From the IMG/VR virus record IMGVR_UViG_2534681675_000028: a stretch of 34,318 bases of DNA. The stretch is one strand, 5' to 3'. The translations under genes and the position numbers were made by a program. Positions 6,040 through 23,894 of the stretch are shown piece after piece. Every line of letters begins with the position of its first letter. Within the stretch, counting starts at the first letter, position 1. Under the pieces are notes generated by a model that saw nothing but the letters and a program-made list of their open reading frames with translations, was not told the origin of the DNA and searched no databases. Origin of the DNA: a virus (taxonomy: Duplodnaviria > Heunggongvirae > Uroviricota > Caudoviricetes).

Positions 6040-6231
6040 TTAAAGTCCTGCCGGTATTTCGTTATTATTAGTGTGAGTAGTTTTATCTACCGGATAACAG
6101 TTACCGGGAATTTTTTGTTCTGCTGCTGCAGCCATGCATTCTTTCATTGAACCGTATAAGCCAGTCACCAGCTCAAGAGATTCGCCGGAAACAAGATAAA
6201 CTGTCAGAACGAGTGCAAATGTTGTATTCAT
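6040..6231 (-). CDS. Hypothetical small protein with hydrophobic N-terminus (early-left operon)
   Basis: 63-aa ORF; start overlaps stop of the upstream gene (ATGA); AAAGGA Shine-Dalgarno 8 nt upstream. Confidence 0.4.
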   Translation of the reverse strand: MNTTFALVLTVYLVSGESLELVTGLYGSMKECMAAAAEQKIPGNCYPVDKTTHTNNNEIPAGL

Positions 6232-6416
6232 TGTTTATATCCTTTTTGCAGCAGGTCCAGACGAGCCAGCATTGAAGGAATGCATACTTCATTTAACAGG
6301 TCCTGCTCGAGTTTTCTCTGCTTAATGGCGTCTTCAATAAATGTTTTGTCTCCAGTGATAACGCCAATTTCGAAACGAAGTTCAGACGTGATGGCATTAC
6401 ATGATAACTTTTCCAT
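6228..6416 (-). CDS. Hypothetical small protein (early-left operon)
   Basis: ORF 6228-6521 trimmed to the internal Met (MEKLSCNAITSELRF…) that has a GAGG Shine-Dalgarno; the longer N-terminal extension has none. Confidence 0.4.
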   Translation of the reverse strand: MEKLSCNAITSELRFEIGVITGDKTFIEDAIKQRKLEQDLLNEVCIPSMLARLDLLQKGYKQ

Positions 6417-6993
6417 TATCGCGTCCTCAACAATGAATTTTGTGATGCGGTGCCTGGTGCCTCCAGGTGACGTTAACCAGTTAACAATTAACGCCGGATA
6501 CAGAGAATCCACCCATAACACTGTTTTTGGTTTTAACTGTTCCGCGTGCGCTGAGCCGCATTCACCGCATCACAAAATTCACTTTTAAAAAAGGGCGGCA
6601 GAGCAGTCACGGAGTAAAACTGATACCGCCAAATGTCACCAGAATATTGATAACAGAGGGCGTTGTAGCGGGGTTGTCACTTAAGCGTATGGTCAACCTG
6701 ACAACCCGGTGTCCTCAACGGGGAAAGGCGTCCCTCCCACCCCCGCCATACTTACCGCCGCGCCATTTCGCGGGTCGCCACAACCGGAAGCGCACGGTCG
6801 AATTAAATTTAACGACACCGTGCAGTGAGACGAACTTCGCCGTGCGCTTTCGTGTTGTGTGCCTGCTTTTAACCACGTCAGGCGAGGTGGTTTCCGTCAT
6901 TCCCCAACGACAGGAAATCTGTATAATCTGGGTATCCCCAACGATCCAAGGAAATCATATGACAGAGCAAAGAGCACAAGCAGGTGATGGTGT

Positions 6994-7904: not shown

Positions 7905-8060
7905 TCACTCACCTGAATTTCTTTCCAGCCAGCGACGCGCGCCAGCTTCGGTTTTAAACGTTTTGCTTCTGGTATACGTCATCGCGGTGAACGTGCCGTC
8001 CTGGTTGGGAAACACGCCGTACACCAGAGATTCGTTGTTGCCAAGATCGATAGTATCCAT
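7905..8060 (-). CDS. Small 51-aa early-left protein (MDTIDLGNNESLVYGVFPNQDGTFTAMTYT…), possibly Rac YdaF-like
   Basis: ORF 7905-8141 trimmed to the internal Met, which has a well-spaced GAGG Shine-Dalgarno; first gene downstream of the putative OL/pL region. Confidence 0.4.
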   Translation of the reverse strand: MDTIDLGNNESLVYGVFPNQDGTFTAMTYTRSKTFKTEAGARRWLERNSGE

Positions 8061-8242
8061 GCTGACCTCATTTCCCCTTAACGCCGGGGTAGCGGAACAA
8101 AAACCTGCTGCATAGTTATTAAAGTTGAACCCTGCCGTCATGTTCTTACGCCTCGGGCTGGCTACTTAACCCCTGACCACTGCCGGGTAACTCTAGGTAT
8201 TGCCCTGCGTTCTGTGGGGCGGGGTGGGTTGGCATGTATATA

Positions 8243-8283
8243 ATGTACTTTATGTTCAGTGTTGTAAAGTACTTTGAGTACAT
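8243..8283. promoter_or_regulatory. OL-like operator cluster (ATGTACT / AAAGTACTTT / GAGTACAT motifs) at the head of the early-left operon
   Basis: Repeated and palindromic GTAC-centred motifs; the same ATGTACTCAAA motif recurs, inverted, in the repressor/cro intergenic region. Confidence 0.4.
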
Positions 8284-8358: not shown

Positions 8359-8778
8359 TTAAGAGGCTTTTTGTTTTTTCTTTCGTGCTAACTCTTCGTA
8401 AATTGCATTGTACTTTTGTTTTTTCTCCTCAAGAGTTTTTAAAAGTTCATCTGTCTCACTGTCAGGGAGCTCGTCCAGAAGATCAATGATGATTTTTTGT
8501 CTTGGATTTAACTCCTGATAGAAACGTACCTGTCCACTTTCTTCTGTATCCTCTCCCAAAAGATAGGTTGGTGTTGTTCCAATGAGTGTTGCTAATTCCC
8601 TTAATTTCTCTCGGCGAGGAATTGTTTCGCCATTAAACCATTTGCTAACCGCTTTTGGTGTTAATTTCATTCGACGGGCAATTTCTGCCTGCCTTCCATG
8701 TTGTTCATAACCAGCGTTTTCACAGGCTAGCGCAAGCCTACTGGCGAACTCTTTACGCGCTTTATCTTCATGAACCAT
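8359..8778 (-). CDS. Prophage repressor (CI-like function), XRE-family HTH, no S24 peptidase domain
   Basis: 139-aa ORF with HTH (QAEIARRMKLTPKAVSKWFNG); divergent from a cro-like gene; no Shine-Dalgarno upstream (possibly leaderless like lambda cI). Confidence 0.7.
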   Translation of the reverse strand: MVHEDKARKEFASRLALACENAGYEQHGRQAEIARRMKLTPKAVSKWFNGETIPRREKLRELATLIGTTPTYLLGEDTEESGQVRFYQELNPRQKIIIDLLDELPDSETDELLKTLEEKKQKYNAIYEELARKKKQKAS

Positions 8779-8857
8779 AAGTTCAATGATATTCGCTCTT
8801 GAATGTACTGTCAGTTCTGTTATAGCATGTACTCAAAGTTCACATTGTGAGGGTGAT
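8779..8857. promoter_or_regulatory. OR-like operator/divergent promoter region between repressor and cro-like gene
   Basis: 80-bp intergenic region containing two ATGTACT motifs (TGAATGTACTG, AGCATGTACTCAAAG). Confidence 0.45.
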
Positions 8858-9112
8858 ATGAACCAGAAAACACTTGAAGATGTAATCAAAACTGTTCGCG
8901 TTTCTGTTGTGGCCGACGTTTGTGGTGTCAGCCAAAGAGCAATCTACAAATGGATGGATAACGGAAAATTGCCTCGCACTGAATATACCGGCGAAACAAA
9001 TTATGCTGAAAAAATCGCTCATGCATCAAACGGATTATTTTCTGCCGATGCAATTTTAACTATTGGCAGAAATAAAACTACTACGAAAAAGCTGTTGGGA
9101 GTTGATTCATGA
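8858..9112 (+). CDS. Cro-like HTH regulator (YdaS-like by recollection)
   Basis: 84 aa from the ATG with a GAGGG Shine-Dalgarno; HTH (VADVCGVSQRAIYKWMDNGKLP); divergent from the repressor. Confidence 0.6.
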   Translation: MNQKTLEDVIKTVRVSVVADVCGVSQRAIYKWMDNGKLPRTEYTGETNYAEKIAHASNGLFSADAILTIGRNKTTTKKLLGVDS

Positions 9113-9534
9113 AAATCAAGCATGAGCACATCCGCATGGCGATGAATGCCTGGTCGCATCCGGACGGCGAAAAAGTTCCGGCAGCTGAAATAACCCGGGC
9201 TTATTTTGAACTGGGTATGACGTTTCCGGAACTGTACGACGATTCACACCCAGAAGCCCTGGCTCGCAATACTCAGAAGATTTTCCGCTGGGTGGAGAAA
9301 GACACCCCTGATGCGGTTAAAAAAATTCAGGCGTTGTTACCAGCGATCGAAAAAGCAATGCCACCTCTGCTGGTGGCCCGAATGCGCAGCCACAGTTCAA
9401 CCTGGTTTCGGGAGCTGGTGGAGACGCGGGAACGACTGGTGAGAGACGCTGATGATTTTGTCGCAGTGGCGATCGCTGGTTTCAATCAGATGAATCGTGG
9501 TGGTCCGGCGGGAAATGCCGTGGTGATGCACTAA
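9109..9534 (+). CDS. CII-like early regulator (YdaT-like by recollection)
   Basis: 141-aa ORF starting MKIKHEHI…; start overlaps the cro-like stop (ATGA); position equivalent to cII. Confidence 0.5.
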   Translation: MKIKHEHIRMAMNAWSHPDGEKVPAAEITRAYFELGMTFPELYDDSHPEALARNTQKIFRWVEKDTPDAVKKIQALLPAIEKAMPPLLVARMRSHSSTWFRELVETRERLVRDADDFVAVAIAGFNQMNRGGPAGNAVVMH

Positions 9535-9557
9535 AAGCACGGTGTTCGGAGTTTTTT

Positions 9558-10505
9558 ATGAGCAGCAAGCTTCATGGTCTTGTCTGGGAAGGGTGTGCCT
9601 TCACCGGCATGATCTTATCCAGGGTGGCAGTAATGGCTCGCCTTGCAGATTACAGCAATGACGAAGGTGTGTCATGGCCTGCAGTGGAGACCATTCGTCG
9701 TCAGATTGGGGCAAAGAGTGAATCAACGGTTAAAGCGGCGATAGCGGAACTGGAAAAGAACGGCTGGCTGACGAAGGAGGAACGTAAGGTCGGTGGGCGT
9801 AATGAAAGCAATATCTACCGTCTTAATGTGGAAAAACTCGAAGCAGCAGCAGCGGCGGCGCGTGAGGCATATAAACCGAAAAGAAAAATTAACCCGGTAA
9901 AAAATGACCCGTCAAATATTGACCCCTCAACGGTTGACCCCTCAAATTTTGATGGATCAACCGTTGATAAAAAACATTCGGTTAGGGGGACGATGGTTGG
10001 CCCCGATCCGTCAGTATTAAAACCTGATCCGCCAGATAAAAGATCTTCTTGTCCGGACGCTTCGCAACCGGACCCGCAGATGGCTGAACAGGATTTTTTA
10101 ACCCGACACCCTGACGCGGTTGTGTTCAGTGCGAAAAAACGCCAGTGGGGCAGCCAGGAAGATTTAGCGTGTGCGCAGTGGATCTGGGGGCGAATCGTGA
10201 GTCTTTACGAGCAGGCTGCCAGCGATGATGGCGAAATCATGCGACCGAAAGAACCAAACTGGACTGCATGGGCCAATGATGTGCGCACAATGCGGATGCT
10301 GGATGGCAGAACTCACAGACAAATTTGCGAAATGTTTGGTCGGGTACAGCGGGATCCATTCTGGGTAAAAAACATCATGAGTCCGGCAAAACTCCGGGAA
10401 AAATGGGATGAGCTGGTTATTCGTCTGGGGCGTTCGCCTGTACAGCGTTGCGTGAATCACATTTCTGAACCGGATACCGAAATTCCGCCGGGGTTCAGGG
10501 GGTAA
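9558..10505 (+). CDS. Replication initiator (lambda O-like function), winged-helix N-terminus, with origin iterons inside the gene
   Basis: 315-aa ORF in the O position; contains four 11-bp iterons spaced 15 bp apart, encoding the repetitive NDPSNIDPSTVDPSNFDGSTVD. Confidence 0.65.
   Translation: MSSKLHGLVWEGCAFTGMILSRVAVMARLADYSNDEGVSWPAVETIRRQIGAKSESTVKAAIAELEKNGWLTKEERKVGGRNESNIYRLNVEKLEAAAAAAREAYKPKRKINPVKNDPSNIDPSTVDPSNFDGSTVDKKHSVRGTMVGPDPSVLKPDPPDKRSSCPDASQPDPQMAEQDFLTRHPDAVVFSAKKRQWGSQEDLACAQWIWGRIVSLYEQAASDDGEIMRPKEPNWTAWANDVRTMRMLDGRTHRQICEMFGRVQRDPFWVKNIMSPAKLREKWDELVIRLGRSPVQRCVNHISEPDTEIPPGFRG
9906..9961. repeat. Four direct iterons (TGACCCGTCAA, TGACCCCTCAA, TGACCCCTCAA, TGATGGATCAA) on a 15-bp period: putative replication origin
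   Basis: Direct reading of the sequence; iteron starts at 9906, 9921, 9936 and 9951. Confidence 0.55.
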
Positions 10506-16844: not shown

Positions 16845-17216
16845 ATGCGTATAGAGTTTGTTTTGCCTTACCCGCCGACGGTGAACACCTACTGGCGACG
16901 TCATGGCAGCACATATTTTGTATCAAAAGCCGGTGAGCGTTATCGCCGTGATGTGGCGTTCATTGTTCGCCAGCAGCGGTTGAAATTAAACCTCTCCGGA
17001 AGGCTGGCGATAAAGATTATTGCAGAGCCACCGGATAAGCGCCGTCGTGACCTGGACAATATCCTGAAAGCACTGCTGGATGCGCTGACACATGCGGGGC
17101 TGCTTATAGACGACGACCAGTTTGATGAAATCAATATTGTGCATGGTCTGCCTGTTTGCGGTGGGCGACTGGGTGTGAATATATTCGTAATAAGAGGATG
17201 TAATGATGTTGCGTGA
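16845..17216 (+). CDS. rusA: Holliday junction resolvase RusA
   Basis: 123-aa ORF; YWRRHG…[22 protein letters not shown] matches RusA motifs as I recall them. Confidence 0.85.
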
Positions 17217-17577
17217 TATTCAGCTGGTTATGGAGCGGTGGGGAGCATGGGCAGCAAGTAATCATGAAGATGTAACATGGTCCTCGATAGCTGCTGGTTT
17301 TAAAGGATTAATCCCGACTAAAGTGAAATCACGTCCTCAGTGTTCTGATGATGACGCCATGATAATTTGTGGCTGTATGGCACGATTAAACAAGAATAAT
17401 CAGTATTTGCACGATTTGTTGGTGGATTATTACGTAGGTGGAATGACATTTATGGCTCTTGCACGTAAGCATAGATGTTCTGATGGGCTTATTGGTAAAA
17501 GACTTTATAAAGCTGAAGGTATTATTGAAGGAATGCTTATGGCTCTGAATGTCCGGTTAGATATGGATATGCGGTAG
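17203..17577 (+). CDS. Q: Late-gene antiterminator Q (phage 21/82-type, QuuD-like)
   Basis: 124-aa ORF; [34 protein letters not shown]…[16 protein letters not shown] matches my recollection of QuuD. Confidence 0.85.
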
Positions 17578-17670
17578 GGATATATAGTGACGAGGGTTAT
17601 GTTTTCCGTGTTTATAATTAATATGTTTATTTTTTGATGGTCATGAATTTTATGGAAGGTAAACAAAATG

Positions 17671-17699
17671 TTGCCAGGTGAATTGAAAATATTGATAAT
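17671..17699 (+). promoter_or_regulatory. Sigma70-type promoter (TTGCCA, 17-bp spacer, GATAAT) downstream of Q: candidate late promoter pR' or cargo promoter
   Basis: Direct reading: -35 at 17671-17676, -10 at 17694-17699; about 30 bp upstream of the next start codon. Confidence 0.45.
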
Positions 17700-17730
17700 C
17701 AATCATCATCATTAAATAAAAGGAGTGTTT

Positions 17731-18549
17731 ATGTGGATTGTGTTAGCACTGTCACTGTCAACTCTCAGTTGGCATAAGGTAGTGGCTTTTTCATTGTTGA
17801 CGGTGTCTGTTGTCCTGGCTGTGCTTAATGATATTATTGATTGGCCGGTGTTGTTTTTTGTTGCTACAATCGTTTTTTTTATTATTTTGAAGTTCAACTG
17901 GAAATATAACGCCTGGGCTAAATCCATATATGAAGCTGGCATAGTTTTATCAGCCATAGCATTATCTTTCCATTTATGGCCAGGGTTTCACAATCCTGTA
18001 GTGCTAAAGTCTGTCACTGTCGGACCTCAAAGCACTCCCTATACAATGTATTTTAATTTTGATAAAGCGCTGGTGCCATTTTTGTTAGTCCTGTGTACAG
18101 CTTCTTTGTTTAAAAAAGAAGTGAAATCAGAAGTGTCTTTGTGGAAATGGGGGGCTCTGTTGCTCTCTGTTCCTCTTATACTGTTTTTGGCTGTTTTTTT
18201 TGGTGGGTTAAAGCCAGAGATTCATTTTCCAGAGTGGTTGCCAGAGTTTATATTGGCTAATTTGTTTTTTGTGTCTCTGGCAGAGGAGTCATTATTTAGA
18301 GGGTATATTCAATCACGGCTATCAGAAGTGACGTCTCCATTGGTTGCGTTAATTGTGGCGTCTTTGTTGTTTGGTTTTTATCACTATTCAGGTGGTGCTT
18401 TACTTGTATTATTTGCCACGTTATCTGGTGTTGTGTATGGATTGTCATGGATGTGGAGTGGGTGCTTGTGGGTGGCAACCCTTTTCCATTTTGGTCTGAA
18501 TCTGTGTCACTTGTTATTCTTTACCTATCCATTCTTAAAACATAATTGA
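17731..18549 (+). CDS. CPBP-family (CAAX protease / Abi, PF02517-type) intramembrane metalloprotease
   Basis: 272-aa polytopic ORF with AGGAG Shine-Dalgarno; conserved motifs EExxxR (AEESLFRGY), FxxxH (FGFYHY) and HxxxN (HFGLNLCH). Confidence 0.75.
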   Translation: MWIVLALSLSTLSWHKVVAFSLLTVSVVLAVLNDIIDWPVLFFVATIVFFIILKFNWKYNAWAKSIYEAGIVLSAIALSFHLWPGFHNPVVLKSVTVGPQSTPYTMYFNFDKALVPFLLVLCTASLFKKEVKSEVSLWKWGALLLSVPLILFLAVFFGGLKPEIHFPEWLPEFILANLFFVSLAEESLFRGYIQSRLSEVTSPLVALIVASLLFGFYHYSGGALLVLFATLSGVVYGLSWMWSGCLWVATLFHFGLNLCHLLFFTYPFLKHN

Positions 18550-18688
18550 TTTTTTTCTATGGCTTTAAATTTATAACACTGAAAAATAGCAGTATGTGAC
18601 ATTTGCATGAAAAATATGCACGGCAAAGCATTTACGTACGTAAAAAATCATGTATGCTTTTAAGAGTGGTTATTTCACCGCATAGCCT

Positions 18689-18714
18689 GAACCCGCCTCT
18701 GAGCGGGTTTTTTG
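18689..18714 (+). terminator. Rho-independent terminator after the CPBP gene
   Basis: ACCCGC-CTCTGA-GCGGGT followed by TTTTTTG. Confidence 0.65.
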
Positions 18715-18836
18715 TGCCCGCAAAGTAGCGCAGTGCGTTAAATGTGCTGGTAGTTATTAATACTGGTCTTTCTGCTTGCTGGCTTTTTAGACAAGAGTTA
18801 TTGGTATGTCACGTTAACCAGAAAAGGGAAAAAGAC

Positions 18837-19034
18837 ATGCTAAAACAGCAGGATATGACCGAAACCGCCAGAGTGGTGTTTAATGAATTAAGCGTCACCG
18901 AACCGGCGACCGTCGGGGAGATTGCGCAGAATACTTACCTTTCACGCGAGCGCTGCCAGTTAATACTGACTCAGCTTGTTATGGCGGGTCTGGCAGATTA
19001 TCAGTTCGGTTGTTACAGACGCCTTCCGCAGTGA
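18837..19034 (+). CDS. Small hypothetical protein, possibly winged-helix DNA-binding
   Basis: ORF 18744-19034 trimmed to the internal ATG (MLKQQDMTET…) preceded by AAGGGAA. Confidence 0.4.
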   Translation: MLKQQDMTETARVVFNELSVTEPATVGEIAQNTYLSRERCQLILTQLVMAGLADYQFGCYRRLPQ

Positions 19035-19184
19035 AGGCTTTTTAATTTGTGGTAATGGGCGGCTGGTGGGTGTTAGCGGCACCTGCCAGCCATCTGCTCA
19101 TGCGTTGGGGTCACAAGCAAACCTCAGGCCCATCTGCTTTGCGCAAAAGCGGTATGAGCCTATCAGAGAAGTGCTTATTGATCT

Positions 19185-19734
19185 ATGGCTAATACTGTAA
19201 AAATATCCAGCTGCGAGTTAATCAACGCTGATTTCCTGGAATTTATCCAGACCTTACCGGAAAACTCTGTCGATCTGATAGTCACAGACCCGCCATACTT
19301 TAAAGTGAAGCCCGAGGGCTGGGATAACCAGTGGAAGGGCGACGATGATTACCTGAAATGGCTGGATCAGTGTCTGGCGCAGTTCTGGTGGGTATTAAAA
19401 CCCGCCGGAAGTCTTTACCTGTTCTGTGGTCATCGCCTGGCATCTGATATCGAAATCATGATGCGTGAGCGCTTTAATGTGCTGAACCACATTATCTGGG
19501 CGAAGCCGTCCGGGCGCTGGAACGGGTGCAACAAGGAAAGCCTGCGGGCGTATTTCCCGGCAACAGAGCGCATTCTGTTTGCGTCCGGGAGATTTGGTTG
19601 CCGACTTTTTCATGGGGTCAGGCTCCATAATAAAAGCAGCGCTGGCACTTGGGGGCATGGCGTTAAGCGTTGAACTTGAGTCTGAACGTTTTGAGCATAC
19701 TGCGGGTGAAATAGTTACGTTGGCAGATAATTAA
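19185..19734 (+). pseudogene. DNA N6-adenine (beta-class) methyltransferase with an apparent frameshift near 19585
   Basis: N-terminal frame has DPPY (motif IV); the +1 frame downstream reads RPGDLVADFFMGSGSIIKAALALGG (motif I, FxGxG); the two frames do not join without an indel. Confidence 0.6.
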
Positions 19735-19848
19735 ATCACTGCACAATAAGCTAATGAATTGATGTTAACTTCCCGTATTATTGGGCTACTTCGAGAGAAA
19801 GGTGCATTACATTTCAGATGTATTTCATCTCACATCCGAGGAAGCAAT

Positions 19849-19924
<76 letters not shown>

Positions 19925-19927
19925 TAT

Positions 19928-20002
<75 letters not shown>

Positions 20003-20281
20003 ACATTTGATAGAGGCGTATTGCAGCACTGGCGTATTTTTATTACGTGAGGACAGATTGTTTTTTTAGGAACTCTCAGTTTTCGGGCTATGTTTTGAGG
20101 CCAGGTTAGCCTCAGTGCTGATTTTTTACAATACCGGAATGGTGCATTATTGGTTGGGTTACGTAGTGAGCCCTATGGCAGGTACCGGTGATGCACCATT
20201 CCGATGTTGTAAACATCACTTAGAGTAAGTTATAGAACAATTTGCTACTAAGTAAAACCTGAAACCTGGGAATACATCTTT

Positions 20282-20307
20282 ACCGCCACACTTGGCGGTT
20301 TTTTTTT
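20282..20307 (+). terminator. Strong Rho-independent terminator downstream of the tRNA pair
   Basis: ACCGCC-ACACTT-GGCGGT followed by a T9 run. Confidence 0.7.
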
Positions 20308-20405
20308 ATTCTGTTTTTTCATGGCTCGCTACGGCGGCCTTTTTCATGTATACCCTGGCGGTTATTATGATGGCTTGTTTATTTGTTCATAAGAGGATTG
20401 ATACA

Positions 20406-20888
20406 GTGGTCACTTATGCTGATATCAGGGCAAAACGGGCCGAAATACTGAAAGCTAAGCAGGAATACATTCAGCGGTTGCGGGATACAGCCACAAGGCT
20501 GGTCAATGCCTATGAGTCTTCACTGGCGTTGCCGGAACTGCAATGGCGAGACATTGAGGGTGAGTTACATCCTTACGTCTATATTTGCTTCAATGGCTTC
20601 AGTGTCCGACCGGAGGATTTGCAGGTAGACCTTAGGGACGGAGTTGCGTTTAAATTATACACAGTTGTTGATGACAATCCCCGCCAGTCTGCAAGTATGG
20701 AAGTTGGTGTAAAGATTGTGCTGCTTGATGGCGATAACCTGACGATTTCAGTTAATGGTTATGGGGACAGAACATTTTCGCACGTAGATACCGATGCAAA
20801 AATTAACGAGGTATGCGAGTTCATCAAAGACAGTATTTTAATGTCGATGAATGATGTGAATTTGGCAAAGCATCTCTGCCGAAGATAG
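20406..20888 (+). CDS. Hypothetical cargo protein in the slot between the tRNAs and the lysis cassette; start uncertain
   Basis: ORF 20292-20888 in the track begins inside the terminator; GTG 20406 has an AAGAGGA Shine-Dalgarno; an alternative ATG at 20346 would add an N-terminal hydrophobic segment but has no Shine-Dalgarno. Confidence 0.4.
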   Translation: MVTYADIRAKRAEILKAKQEYIQRLRDTATRLVNAYESSLALPELQWRDIEGELHPYVYICFNGFSVRPEDLQVDLRDGVAFKLYTVVDDNPRQSASMEVGVKIVLLDGDNLTISVNGYGDRTFSHVDTDAKINEVCEFIKDSILMSMNDVNLAKHLCRR

Positions 20889-21098
20889 AAGGCAGGAGTC
20901 GTAAAAAGGAATCGTTCGAAAATCTCAGAATCACCAGGCTGCGCATTTGCGTGGCCTTTTTTGTATCCGCGCCACGCCCGGCGCATATCAAAAACCACAG
21001 AGCCTTTCAGGGGTGAGCTTACGGGATGGTCAGTGTGACTTTCTCTGTGGGCTGGTCACCCCCGGGCGCAGGCTCACCCACTAAAAGGAAAAGTCACG

Positions 21099-21524
21099 AT
21101 GTTTGGTATTTTCAAAAAGAAAACACGCAAGGCCATTACCGAAGTGAAGAAGATGGAGAACCGCGACGCAGTGGAGGCGACCGTCTGGGGTGCGTATTCC
21201 ATTGCATACGCTGACGACACCTGTGACTCGAAAGAAATCGCGGTACTGGAGAAAACCATTGCAGCACTTCCTGCCTTTGCGCCGTTCTCCGGTGAGATTG
21301 CACAAATGAGTGCAAATATCCGCGCCCGTTATGAAGCGTCGCCGCGCTCTGCCAATGCTGAAGCCCTTCGCCAGCTGGCTGATGTCGCCGGTACTGATGA
21401 CGCAGTGAATGTGCTGTGCCTGTGTCTGGATATTGCAGACCAGGATGGCATTGGGCCGGAGGAAGAAGTACAGCTCAAGAAAATTGCTCAGGCGCTTCAG
21501 TTACCGCTGGAGCAGTACCTGTGA
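21099..21524 (+). CDS. TerB-like (tellurite-resistance TerB / DjlA N-terminal domain family) protein
   Basis: 141-aa ORF; family assignment by recollection of prophage TerB-family proteins. Confidence 0.5.
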   Translation: MFGIFKKKTRKAITEVKKMENRDAVEATVWGAYSIAYADDTCDSKEIAVLEKTIAALPAFAPFSGEIAQMSANIRARYEASPRSANAEALRQLADVAGTDDAVNVLCLCLDIADQDGIGPEEEVQLKKIAQALQLPLEQYL

Positions 21525-21673
21525 AAAGTGCGCGCCTTGTACTGGCTGCCATCCTGCTGTTTCTGGTAGTGGTGGTGGATTTTACCGGACGGCTGATGTC
21601 GGTACTGGCAGATGGTGTGCTGGTGGTGATGGTGTTGGTCGTGCTCCGGCCTTTACTGCGCAAATCTGAATAA
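21521..21673 (+). CDS. Small hydrophobic protein (50 aa, two hydrophobic stretches), apparently translationally coupled to the TerB-like gene
   Basis: GTG start overlaps the TerB-like stop (GTGA); LVLAAILLFLVVVV and GVLVVMVLVVL segments; under 60 aa from its start. Confidence 0.35.
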   Translation: MKSARLVLAAILLFLVVVVDFTGRLMSVLADGVLVVMVLVVLRPLLRKSE

Positions 21674-21723
21674 CACCACGCAAAAGGCATCTGCGGGTGC
21701 CTTTGATTGGGTGTTGTTTTTAC

Positions 21724-21748
21724 GGGCCGCTGGTGGCCTTTTTTGTTT
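21724..21748 (+). terminator. Putative intrinsic terminator upstream of the holin gene
   Basis: GGCC-GCTGGT-GGCC hairpin followed by TTTTTTGTTT; preceded by a second 7-bp hairpin at 21683-21704. Confidence 0.4.
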
Positions 21749-21784
21749 CCATTATACAACGCCCGCATCTGCGAGGTGGGGGTT

Positions 21785-22000
21785 ATGAAATCCATGGACA
21801 AAATTTCAACGGGCATTGCCTATGGCACCTCCGCAGGCAGTGCTGGCTACTGGTTTTTACAGTGGCTTGATCAGGTCAGTCCGTCACAGTGGGCTGCGAT
21901 TGGTGTATTAGGGAGTCTGGTTCTGGGCTTCCTGACTTATCTGACAAATCTGTACTTCAAAATAAGAGAAGACAGAAGAAAGGCTGCGAGAGGTGAATAA
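21785..22000 (+). CDS. S: Class II holin of phage 21 type (S21-like pinholin) with dual-start motif MKSMDK
   Basis: [71 protein letters not shown] matches my recollection of S21; GAGGTG Shine-Dalgarno. Confidence 0.85.
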
Positions 22001-22497
22001 TGCCTCCATCATTACGAAAAGCCGTTGCTGCTGCTATTGGTGGCGGGGCTATTGCTATAGCATCTGTGTTAATCACTGGTCCAGGTGGTAACGATGGTCT
22101 GGAAGGTGTCAGTTACATACCATACAAAGATATTGTTGGTGTATGGACTGTATGCCACGGACACACCGGAAAAGACATCATGCTCGGTAAAACGTATACC
22201 GAAGCAGAATGCAAAGCCCTCCTGAATAAAGACCTTTCCACGGTCGCCAGACAAATTACCCCGTACATCAAAGTCGATATACCAGAAACAACGCGCGGCG
22301 CTCTTTACTCATTCGTCTATAACGTGGGTGCTGGAAATTTCAGAACATCGACTCTTCTTCGCAAAATAAACCAGGGTGATATCAAAGGCGCATGTGATCA
22401 GCTACGGCGCTGGACATACGCTGGCGGTAAGCAATGGAAAGGGCTGATGACCCGTCGTGATATTGAGCGTGAAGTCTGTTTGTGGGGGCAGCAATGA
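22000..22497 (+). CDS. R: SAR endolysin (lysozyme, R21-like) with N-terminal signal-anchor-release segment
   Basis: 165-aa ORF whose start overlaps the holin stop; hydrophobic Gly/Ala-rich N-terminus ([20 protein letters not shown]); lysozyme-like body. Confidence 0.8.
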
Positions 22498-22961
22498 GCA
22501 GAGTAACCGCGATTATCTCCGCTCTGATTATCTGCATCGTCGTCTGTCTGTCGTGGGCGGTCAATCATTACCGTGATAACGCCATCGCCTACAAAGAACA
22601 GCGTGATAAAAAAGTCAGTGAGCTGAAGCAGGCGACTGCCACCATCGCTGACATGCAGCAGCGTCAGCGTGATGTTGCTGCGCTCGATGCAAAGTACTCG
22701 AGAGAATTAGCCAATGCGCAAGCTGAAAATGAAACTCTGCGTGCTGATGTTACCGCTGGTCGTAAGCGCCTGCGGATCAACGCCACCTGTCCAGGCTCCG
22801 TGCGTGAAGCCACCGCCACCGCCCGCGTGGGCAATGATGCCAGCGTCGAACTCTCTCCAGTTGCTGGACGAAACGTTCTCGGTATCAGAGACGGAATCAT
22901 CAGCGACCAGGCAGCATTGAGAACGCTTCAGGAATATATCCGTACTCAGTGCCTGAAATAG
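22494..22961 (+). CDS. Rz: Rz i-spanin
   Basis: Start ATG overlaps the endolysin stop (ATGA); N-terminal transmembrane segment then coiled-coil-like body. Confidence 0.75.
22714..22920 (+). CDS. Rz1: Rz1 o-spanin lipoprotein embedded in the +1 frame of Rz
   Basis: [22 protein letters not shown]… has a lipobox followed by a proline-rich stretch ([10 protein letters not shown]), resembling lambda Rz1. Confidence 0.75.
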
Positions 22962-23417
22962 TTTTTTCAATGCGTTGTATCGTCGCCGTATTTCCGCATT
23001 AACAGAGACCGCAGCCCTATGGGGAGACTCCTCTGCGCGAGTGTGCGGGGATAATCAAAAACGATACACACCGGGGTTTACTGCGTTAACGGAGCGCGGC
23101 GTTGTCCCCTCATAGTCGCCTGGCCGGTGCGATGGTGGAAGAAACCGGAACACATTACAAAATGATAACAATTATCATTTTTCGGGTCCTCCTGGCGGGG
23201 TGGGCCTGTACACGGGGCGGGTCGGCGCGGAAAAAAGCGCATTTTTGTGATTTTATCGTCATCATCATCATGTATGTAAACTGTTGTTTTTAATGTAATT
23301 GATACAAAAAAGATGATGGTTGTGGCCAATTTTTGTTCGACATCTTTGTGTGGCGGCATTTCTTTACAAAAAAAACAGAATCACTTCTGTTCAGAGGGGT
23401 ATGTGGAGGAGGCGTAG

Positions 23418-23894
23418 ATGGACGGCGAGCTGAAAAATATGAAGTTAAATATTAATCAACTGGCAGCCCTTTCAGGCCTGCACCGGCAGACCGTTACCGC
23501 AAGAATGGCGGATGTTCCTCTTGCTCCGGGCAGTAATGAGAAGAAAAAACTTTATCTCCTGACGGACCTGATTACTGCGCTGCTGGCAAAAACACCATCT
23601 ACCGAAGATGAGGAGATGAATCCACACGATCGCAAGGCATGGTATCAGTCCGAGCGCGAGCGTCTTAAATTTCAGCATGAAACTGTTCAGCTTGTCCCTG
23701 TCAGTGATGTCAGGCGGTCGTTTTCCGTCGTGGTGAAAGCCATTGTGCAGATACTGGAAACCTGGCCTGACAGGCTGGAGAGGGACAGGGGGTGGACTGC
23801 ATCACAACTGAACGAAGTGCAGATCGTTGTTGATGAGATCCGTGACACGCTGGAAAAGGCAGTGATTGCCTGCTGTGATGAGGCTGATATGTGA
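23418..23894 (+). CDS. Terminase small subunit
   Basis: 158-aa ORF with GGAGGAGG Shine-Dalgarno, immediately upstream of and overlapping the large terminase. Confidence 0.65.
   Translation: MDGELKNMKLNINQLAALSGLHRQTVTARMADVPLAPGSNEKKKLYLLTDLITALLAKTPSTEDEEMNPHDRKAWYQSERERLKFQHETVQLVPVSDVRRSFSVVVKAIVQILETWPDRLERDRGWTASQLNEVQIVVDEIRDTLEKAVIACCDEADM

Follow-up and report, generated by a model that had tools for sequence, protein, structure and literature searches.

A predicted single-gene cassette of the phrog_5091 family in the late cargo slot of a tailed-phage genome

The region downstream of pR' is a known moron insertion site (Tree et al. 2014, PMC4104026), the moron concept being that of Juhala et al. 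2000, as cited in PMC4104026. This slot downstream of Q and pR' carries Shiga toxin and other late cargo, and knowing which genes travel there helps in reading the prophage content of Shiga toxin-producing Escherichia coli (STEC). In the Stx2a phage F723, for example, the tRNA block ileZ-argN-argO is followed after 90 nt by stx2A. Here we describe an open reading frame (ORF) in the same kind of slot of IMG/VR virus record IMGVR_UViG_2534681675_000028 (Duplodnaviria; Heunggongvirae; Uroviricota; Caudoviricetes), the 34,318-nt stretch of DNA that we call the window. As with the stxAB cargo of Stx-converting lambdoid phages, the ORF lies downstream of Q and of tRNA genes and upstream of the lysis genes. 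We read it as a late-expressed, cytoplasmic binding protein that would act alone in phage-host or phage-phage conflict and that is carried in a terminator-bounded cassette; for this statement as a whole we estimate a probability of about 0.5. We hold its anatomical part (gene, cassette and site) with high confidence, and its functional part is tentative.

The ORF is a true gene rather than a chance frame, because it matches a protein family, has homologous clusters and shows purifying selection, with pairwise ratios of nonsynonymous to synonymous divergence (dN/dS) among its alleles of 0.14–0.33. The frame runs uninterrupted on the plus strand from TTG 20292 to TAG 20886–20888, a length of 198 codons in the ORF list. 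A first-pass annotation had given its span as 20308–20888; the 3' end at 20888 is exact, whereas no in-frame start codon lies at 20308. The product matches phrog_5091 (‘unknown function’ in PHROGs v4) with E = 7.6e-41, residues 39–192 aligning with profile positions 2–161 of 164, and all 59 of the 59 sampled relatives match this PHROG and no other. Homologous clusters numbered 23 by word-index search, and a profile run of that homologue search brought in only three more distant proteins. Scans of genome contigs returned none and then only two loci, and an exhaustive HMMER profile search recovered 118 clusters at the 50% identity level, mostly from Enterobacterales. One match of the exhaustive search, P0034 (2983 residues, metagenomic, E = 2e-25), was rejected as low-complexity sequence, with 21 ‘TVTDDDGDSD’ repeats set against the TVxDD motif of the family, and this false positive is a caution for automated family expansion. 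By sequence comparison, the protein thus joins a known but uncharacterised family as a new member. Nothing distinguishes it from phrog_5091, which has no name, Pfam entry, structure or literature, and a literature search with the PHROG identifier, six protein accessions and DUF3927 gave nothing useful.

The gene is flanked by intrinsic terminators. The first, found by scanning, closes the tRNA block (20282–20308, plus strand; ACCGCCA-CACT-TGGCGGT at 20282–20299, then T9) and is conserved in L003, L037 and L038 (loci used for comparison carry L numbers throughout). The left junction of the cassette follows at 20323–20349 on the plus strand, as a degenerate UACG-tetraloop hairpin (20323–20339) with T5, GGCTCGCTACGGCGGCCTTTTTCATGTAT; alignment with pPE4, JLK-2012 and L002/L003 shows that the window copy has lost one G. 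Just 5' of the gene, the sequence GGCTCGCTACGGCGG(G)CCTTTTTCAT(A/G)TAT is the terminator that stands directly before the tciA leader in pPE4, which is without the gene, and a UUCG-loop version of it precedes the tciA leader in JLK-2012, also without the gene. The right junction is an intrinsic terminator at 20936–20965 on the plus strand (hairpin 20936–20957, AGGCTGCGCATTTGCGTGGCCT, then T6), and by megablast the homology to the gene-less phages pPE4 and PPyecE_EH1910 resumes here, from ~20942. JLK-2012 has the tRNAs and tciA with no such gene between them, and pPE4 and L037–L039 likewise lack it. Because the junctions are clean and homology resumes at the terminators, the insert is identified from these alignments as a single-gene moron cassette of ~0.6 kb, at about 20350–20960, between two intrinsic terminators in the cargo region of a lambdoid prophage. 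Its G+C fraction is 0.43–0.48 across the gene and 0.53–0.56 in the tciA and holin region. Similar hairpin, T-run and (C/G)AT..TAT sequences stand at both ends of the cassette (20323–20349 and 20937–20965). Since the left flank is the pre-tciA-leader terminator of phages without the gene, there are hints that terminators may serve as recombination junctions for cargo exchange.

A promoter scan placed a weak sigma-70-like site ahead of the gene (20341–20368, plus strand; TTTTCA, 16-nt spacer, TATTAT; 9 of 12 positions), the −35 element of which is the T-tail of the preceding terminator. Promoter-like sites across the region numbered 13, as compared with 10.3 ± 3.3 in shuffled sequences, which is no enrichment, and the function of this site is doubtful. 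Terminators flank the gene, it is co-oriented with late genes and in some relatives overlaps them, and no convincing promoter was found; we therefore suggest that most of its transcription probably comes from Q-modified, terminator-resistant RNA polymerase in lytic growth.

Translation could begin in frame on the plus strand at TTG 20292 (198 residues), ATG 20346 (180 residues), ATG 20367/20370 (173/172 residues) or GTG 20406 (160 residues). We rejected the longest reading, as TTG 20292 lies inside the terminator stem-loop 20282–20299 and a 1-nt indel breaks the frame in L002 and L003. The 180-residue reading, which is the start chosen by the Prokaryotic Genome Annotation Pipeline (PGAP) in a 99% identical genome, was rejected, since L002 has ATA in place of ATG 20346, and L012 and L014 lack this codon. 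Start conservation was checked in the upstream sequences of 19 loci, and the inner-start position is GTG or ATG in 20 of 20 diverged sequences (the window and the 19 loci). In the window, GTG 20406 opens a core coding sequence of 160 residues (20406–20888, plus strand) and is preceded at 8-nt spacing by a strong Shine-Dalgarno (SD) sequence, AAGAGGA (20391–20397). The phrog_5091 alignment begins at the residue of this GTG, and the core is the part that both matches the family and folds.

The longer form of 173/172 residues (20367–20888, plus strand) begins at ATG 20367/20370, behind a weak SD-like GGCGG at 20357–20361. This outer ATG lies 12–13 codons upstream of GTG 20406 in the window and, family-wide, is conserved in frame at 11–13 codons; the motif before it is GAGGT in Hafnia-type and L021/L022-type loci and AGGTGAT in a distant ‘PRGG’ subfamily. 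Dual in-frame starts, each with an SD-like motif, are seen at 20367–20408 in the window and at the equivalent positions in L004, L021–L023 and L030–L035, and the layout is conserved from close to very distant phrog_5091 members. Because the two in-frame starts are conserved and each has its own SD-like motif, both may be used, giving a long and a short isoform.

Whichever conserved start is used, the product is a soluble protein of 160–173 residues, ~18–20 kDa, with a mildly acidic isoelectric point of 5.2–5.6. The ‘possible N-terminal hydrophobic segment’ of the first-pass annotation appears in the 198- and 180-residue readings only, where it is read-through of the terminator T-run, and it is gone with the conserved starts: the Kyte-Doolittle maximum over 19 residues falls from 2.19 (198 residues) and 1.59 (180 residues) to 0.99. 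Hydrophobic-window and upstream-sequence checks found neither a transmembrane segment nor a signal peptide with either conserved start. A lipoprotein reading of ‘MMAC’, a pseudo-lipobox, was rejected as its cysteine is not conserved among relatives. The 180–198-residue ‘membrane’ forms are artefacts, and this removes a misleading annotation.

These features bear on the question of whether the protein is a virulence factor that is secreted or anchored in the membrane and serves as a functional analogue of Shiga toxin. Position speaks for this, and for one allele the analogy with the stx slot that had been drawn for the ORF holds literally. In L002 (E. coli E200086) the gene starts ~60–100 nt downstream of the tRNA genes Ile2(CAT), Arg(TCG) and Arg(TCT), so that it directly follows the ileZ-argN-argO block and takes exactly the place of stx2A in Stx2 phages. 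More than 170 Stx2-phage records contain this tRNA block at 92% identity, the homology stopping ~40 nt past the last tRNA, and several carrier strains of the gene are STEC. With its conserved starts, however, the protein has no signal peptide, lipobox or transmembrane segment; the pseudo-lipobox cysteine is variable; no similarity to a toxin family and no secreted-toxin features were found; and the family also occurs in prophages of Serratia, Xenorhabdus, Enterobacter, Limnobaculum and Chromobacterium. We consider a toxin analogue very improbable.

To describe the fold, we modelled the 160-residue core with AlphaFold2 from a 15-sequence alignment, which gave a mean predicted local distance difference test (pLDDT) score of 87.2 and a predicted template modelling (pTM) score of 0.79. 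The model comprises a helix (residues 4–39), eight antiparallel β-strands (46–124) and a closing helix (130–159). In the 173-residue form residues 1–9 are disordered and the fold is the same. Foldseek searches of the model against the PDB and against BFVD returned nothing at E ≤ 1e-3. That the protein is not readily recognised, as was remarked at the outset, agrees with our searches, in which Pfam, NCBIfam and PADLOC scans gave nothing above noise and a profile search of PDB sequences reached a best E of 0.23. Scanning against PADLOC-DB 2.0 at E ≤ 1 gave no match to a hidden Markov model of known anti-phage defence. A match to RepB_C (14 bits) was dismissed, as it covers only a 23-residue helix, and no catalytic family was recognisable in the protein. 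Homology to a phage structural or housekeeping protein, which would have overturned the cargo interpretation, was found neither in Pfam, PHROGs, NCBIfam and PDB sequences nor among BFVD and PDB folds.

Weak structural neighbours of the model share a sheet with helices on one face only, the other face being free. This fold class resembles two-layer helix/antiparallel-sheet adaptors such as CapZ subunits, the PI31/Fbxo7 FP domain, CesT/SicP-type type III secretion system (T3SS) chaperones and YbjN-like proteins, and the predicted likeness is one of class and not evidence of homology. A one-faced helix/sheet layout is common among adaptors, chaperones and inhibitors. Compared with CesT/SicP-like class I chaperones of the T3SS, the protein has no cognate effector adjoining it, its neighbours being tRNAs, tciA/tciB, holins, and terminase or tail genes. 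Residues Y36, S39-L40, W47 and Y57, a TVxDDxPR(GG) hairpin and a CxxIKD motif in the last helix are conserved family-wide, and from the alignment could mark a binding surface or pocket. Given this class of fold, and as no catalytic signature was seen, we propose that the protein probably works by binding a partner rather than by catalysis.

Of 5426 complete E. coli genomes, 27 carry the gene, each time under the label ‘hypothetical protein’. Its relatives are found in E. coli, Salmonella, Citrobacter, Hafnia, Serratia, Enterobacter, Klebsiella, Xenorhabdus, Yersinia, Limnobaculum and Chromobacterium, in twelve distinct neighbourhoods in which the gene is always co-oriented with late genes. It lies between tRNAs and tciA in the window, L001–L003 and L006–L019; after Q and an HNH gene and before tciA in phage CharmingMan (28% identical, the TciA being 88% identical); downstream of Q and before the holin in Hafnia L004, L021 and L033; between a methyltransferase and the holin in Xenorhabdus L030; after Q and PixA in L031; and between the lysis cassette and terS in L022 and L023. 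Other members stand in myovirus tail modules: downstream of TMP and before a Dit-like gene in Chromobacterium L028, where it overlaps this next gene by 8 nt, and in L035; between gpV and gpW in L032; and between TAC and TMP in L034. Each of the sites is a junction between modules or has further obvious cargo in it, and there is no constant neighbour. This distribution shows that the gene moves on its own from one late-operon cargo site to another. Two neighbours are typical cargo: a GhoS-like antitoxin gene beside the L034 member, on the opposite strand (6513–6797, minus strand), and a PixA inclusion-body protein gene beside the L031 member (6156–6698).

Such rare and patchy occurrence, with PixA, GhoS-like genes and antirepressors as neighbours in other phages, is also what a lysogenic-conversion moron would display. 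Here the gene would be expressed from its own promoter in the prophage and would protect the lysogen through superinfection exclusion, abortive infection or another defence, and both the gene-plus-terminator arrangement, which is the classic moron layout, and the sigma-70-like site fit this explanation. The promoter match is weak, however, with its −35 element formed by a terminator tail and no enrichment of such sites over shuffles; no PADLOC model matches the protein; and several relatives are embedded in or overlap late operons, as with the 8-nt overlap in L028. We judge conversion unlikely, and favour the late-expressed binding protein.

The tail-module members raise the further question of a virion-associated or assembly accessory, which might be injected or help in tail assembly. 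Distant members do lie within tail modules, next to TMP or Dit-like genes (L028 and L035), gpV/gpW (L032) and TAC/TMP (L034). Set against this, siphovirus-type lambdoids carry the family between Q and the lysis genes, and its members occur in myovirus-type as well as siphovirus-type genomes; the gene is absent from close relatives and is therefore dispensable; no structural-protein profile matches; and obvious cargo (antirepressors, DUF4431 and a GhoS-like gene) is likewise present at the tail-module sites. A virion role is accordingly improbable in our estimation.

Among E. coli-type loci the most regular neighbours are tciA (TerB) and tciB (DUF3927), with which the gene could form a three-gene module as a partner of TciA and TciB. 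It adjoins tciA-tciB in 17 of the 18 tabulated E. coli-type loci (L001–L003 and L006–L020), the exception being L020, a frameshifted copy without a tciA match, and the same adjacency is kept in CharmingMan, where the homologue is only 28% identical. The association is nonetheless broken in both directions, as tciA-tciB occurs without the gene in P1, JLK-2012 and pPE4, and the gene occurs without tciA-tciB in Hafnia, Xenorhabdus, Chromobacterium and L021–L023; a terminator also separates the gene from tciA. Synonymous divergence (dS) is uncoupled: for the gene and tciA, respectively, it is 0.06 and 0.95 between the window and L009, and 1.14 and 0.28 between the window and L014. On these values the histories of the gene and tciA are uncoupled, and we give the partnership little credence. 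The dN/dS of the gene (~0.27) exceeds that of tciA (0.03–0.1), which indicates weaker constraint on the gene. TerB-type tciA genes themselves were seen in 86 phage records, jumbo Erwinia phages included.

DNA alignment revealed an allele-specific 1-nt deletion in an A-run of the window copy (20858–20860, ~20859, plus strand; GTG-AATTT as compared with GTGAAATTT in other alleles). The usual tail ...KFGKASLPKIEGWSRKKESFENL becomes ...NLAKHLCRR, so that the last 9 residues are changed and 14 are removed. This deletion raises the prospect that the window copy is decaying within a degrading cargo region, in keeping with the internally frameshifted alleles of L019 and L020 and with the nearby methyltransferase pseudogene at 19185–19734. 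Only a variable tail is hit, however, with low confidence in the AlphaFold2 model (pLDDT < 50 at residues 153–160), and family members end at very different points; the same allele is moreover kept at 97–100% identity in eight complete genomes and several viral contigs. Decay is an improbable account of this copy.

We therefore return to the late-expressed binding protein. It probably acts on its own, a step suggested by the movement of the lone gene between phages and by the lack of a constant neighbour or partner. The most likely arena for it would be phage-host or phage-phage conflict, for example counter-defence or late-phase host takeover, as its rarity, patchiness, mosaic exchange and relaxed constraint suggest. 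Several observations pull the other way. No homology ties phrog_5091 to any function in the sequence searches, and the conserved polar positions (Y36, S39, W47, Y57, TVxDDxPR(GG) and CxxIKD) could equally mark a small-molecule or catalytic site. The weak site at 20341–20368 could permit expression from the prophage, the C-terminal frameshift may leave the window allele impaired, and the four distant relatives inside myovirus tail modules are also compatible with a virion-associated role.

A bolder and more speculative version of the conflict reading is that phrog_5091 may be a new family of late-expressed effectors, with a fold unseen among solved structures, whose dual-start isoforms would neutralise a factor of host immunity or physiology, or a rival phage, by binding. 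If true, the stx slot would be a general hotspot for conflict genes and not a toxin site only. In itself the gene is one among very many uncharacterised phage accessory genes; of specialist interest are the confident, apparently unmatched fold, the conserved dual-start layout and the occupation of the stx site, and as a clean, small candidate it is suited to functional screens for defence, anti-defence and host takeover.

The surroundings of the gene agree with the cargo slot that had been proposed for it, and place it in the moron site downstream of Q and pR'. Antiterminator Q is encoded at 17203–17577 on the plus strand (Pfam Phage_antitermQ, E = 3e-51), and the best pR'-like promoter found by scanning lies at 17671–17699 on the plus strand (TTGCCA, 17-nt spacer, GATAAT; 10 of 12 positions). 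Late, terminator-resistant transcription of the cargo region presumably starts from this promoter, including, as we infer, that of the gene. The placement downstream of the tRNAs stands: ARAGORN finds tRNA-Thr(TGT) at 19849–19924 and tRNA-Gly(TCC) at 19928–20002, together spanning 19849–20002 on the plus strand, each with an Rfam tRNA score of 65 bits. The placement relative to the lysis cassette stands in part, as the gene is upstream of it without directly adjoining it. Two further cargo genes, which the first-pass annotation had not mentioned, lie between the ORF and the holin, all on the plus strand: tciA (21099–21524; TerB family, 141 residues; Pfam TerB, phrog_632, 85% identical to P1 TciA) and tciB (21521–21673; 50 residues; Pfam DUF3927), which overlaps tciA; both are outside the cassette. 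The lysis genes follow on the same strand as an S21-type holin with an MKSM dual start (21785–22000; Pfam Phage_holin_2_1), a lysozyme (22000–22497; Pfam Phage_lysozyme) and Rz with embedded Rz1 (22482–22961; Pfam Phage_lysis and the ORF list).

The cargo region of the window covers 4 kb and holds, besides the gene, a CPBP protease gene, a small winged-helix gene, a frameshifted methyltransferase gene, the tRNAs, tciA and tciB. The CPBP/Rce1-like intramembrane protease is encoded at 17725–18549 (phrog_13291; Pfam E = 6e-19), and the 65-residue winged-helix-like protein (phrog_331) at 18837–19034; the latter accompanies the methyltransferase even in Xenorhabdus. The DNA N6/N4 methyltransferase gene (19185–19734) is frameshifted into pieces of 162 and 51 residues, with intact versions of 348–372 residues in L003 and L030, and is marked as a pseudogene by PGAP in L001. 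L001, 99% identical in its cargo region, has a different lysis cassette that carries extra inserts (7946–8281 and 8673–9680), one of them being an IraM anti-adapter gene on the opposite strand, which indicates rapid cargo turnover just downstream of tciB.

Between tRNA-Gly and the cassette lies a conserved non-coding block of ~300 nt (20003–20312) with an imperfect hairpin of ~40 bp (~20124–20214), followed by the terminator 20282–20299 and T9. The block folds far better than shuffled sequences (z = −6.1), and a further 56 E. coli genomes, all without the cargo gene, have it behind tRNA-Gly at ~77% identity. Across four sequences RNAalifold kept 49 pairs, with 3 compensatory changes, many wobble-preserving one-sided changes and 4 broken pairs. 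We regard the block, which matches no Rfam family, as a candidate structured RNA or tRNA-operon trailer; in some genomes PGAP annotates a dubious ‘hypothetical protein’ across it. An Rfam scan of 17000–23500 found no small RNA family, AgvB/AsxR types included.

Compared with the described systems, the locus departs from the Stx phages in its content. The cargo is one gene and not an A/B pair, without signal peptides and without sequence or fold similarity to stxAB; beside Shiga toxin and other AB5 toxins it is a single gene with no Pfam match and no hydrophobic N-terminus with the conserved starts; and, unlike in Stx phages, a small RNA of the AgvB/AsxR family was not detected by Rfam beside the gene. 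The dual start recalls those of lambda S107/S105 and S21 71/68, which likewise have two in-frame starts with their own SD-like motifs, although here the starts are 11–13 codons apart instead of 2–3 and the product is soluble. A dual start of the S21 71/68 type is itself present in the window, in the holin at 21785. With classical lambdoid morons the gene shares its presence in some but not all collinear phages, its bounding terminators and a G+C content below that of its neighbours; it differs in that the candidate for a promoter of its own is a weak 9/12 match, and its expression may depend wholly on Q read-through. In pPE4 the genes gp31 and gp32 occupy the same slot, and we rejected them as homologues (hhalign probability < 1%). 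Phage P1 has plp and upl in its slot, on the opposite strand and unrelated to the protein, and carries no phrog_5091 member, yet its arrangement dmt – trnT – (plp, upl) – tciA – tciB – tciC follows the same order as the window: methyltransferase, tRNA-Thr, cargo slot and tciA/tciB.

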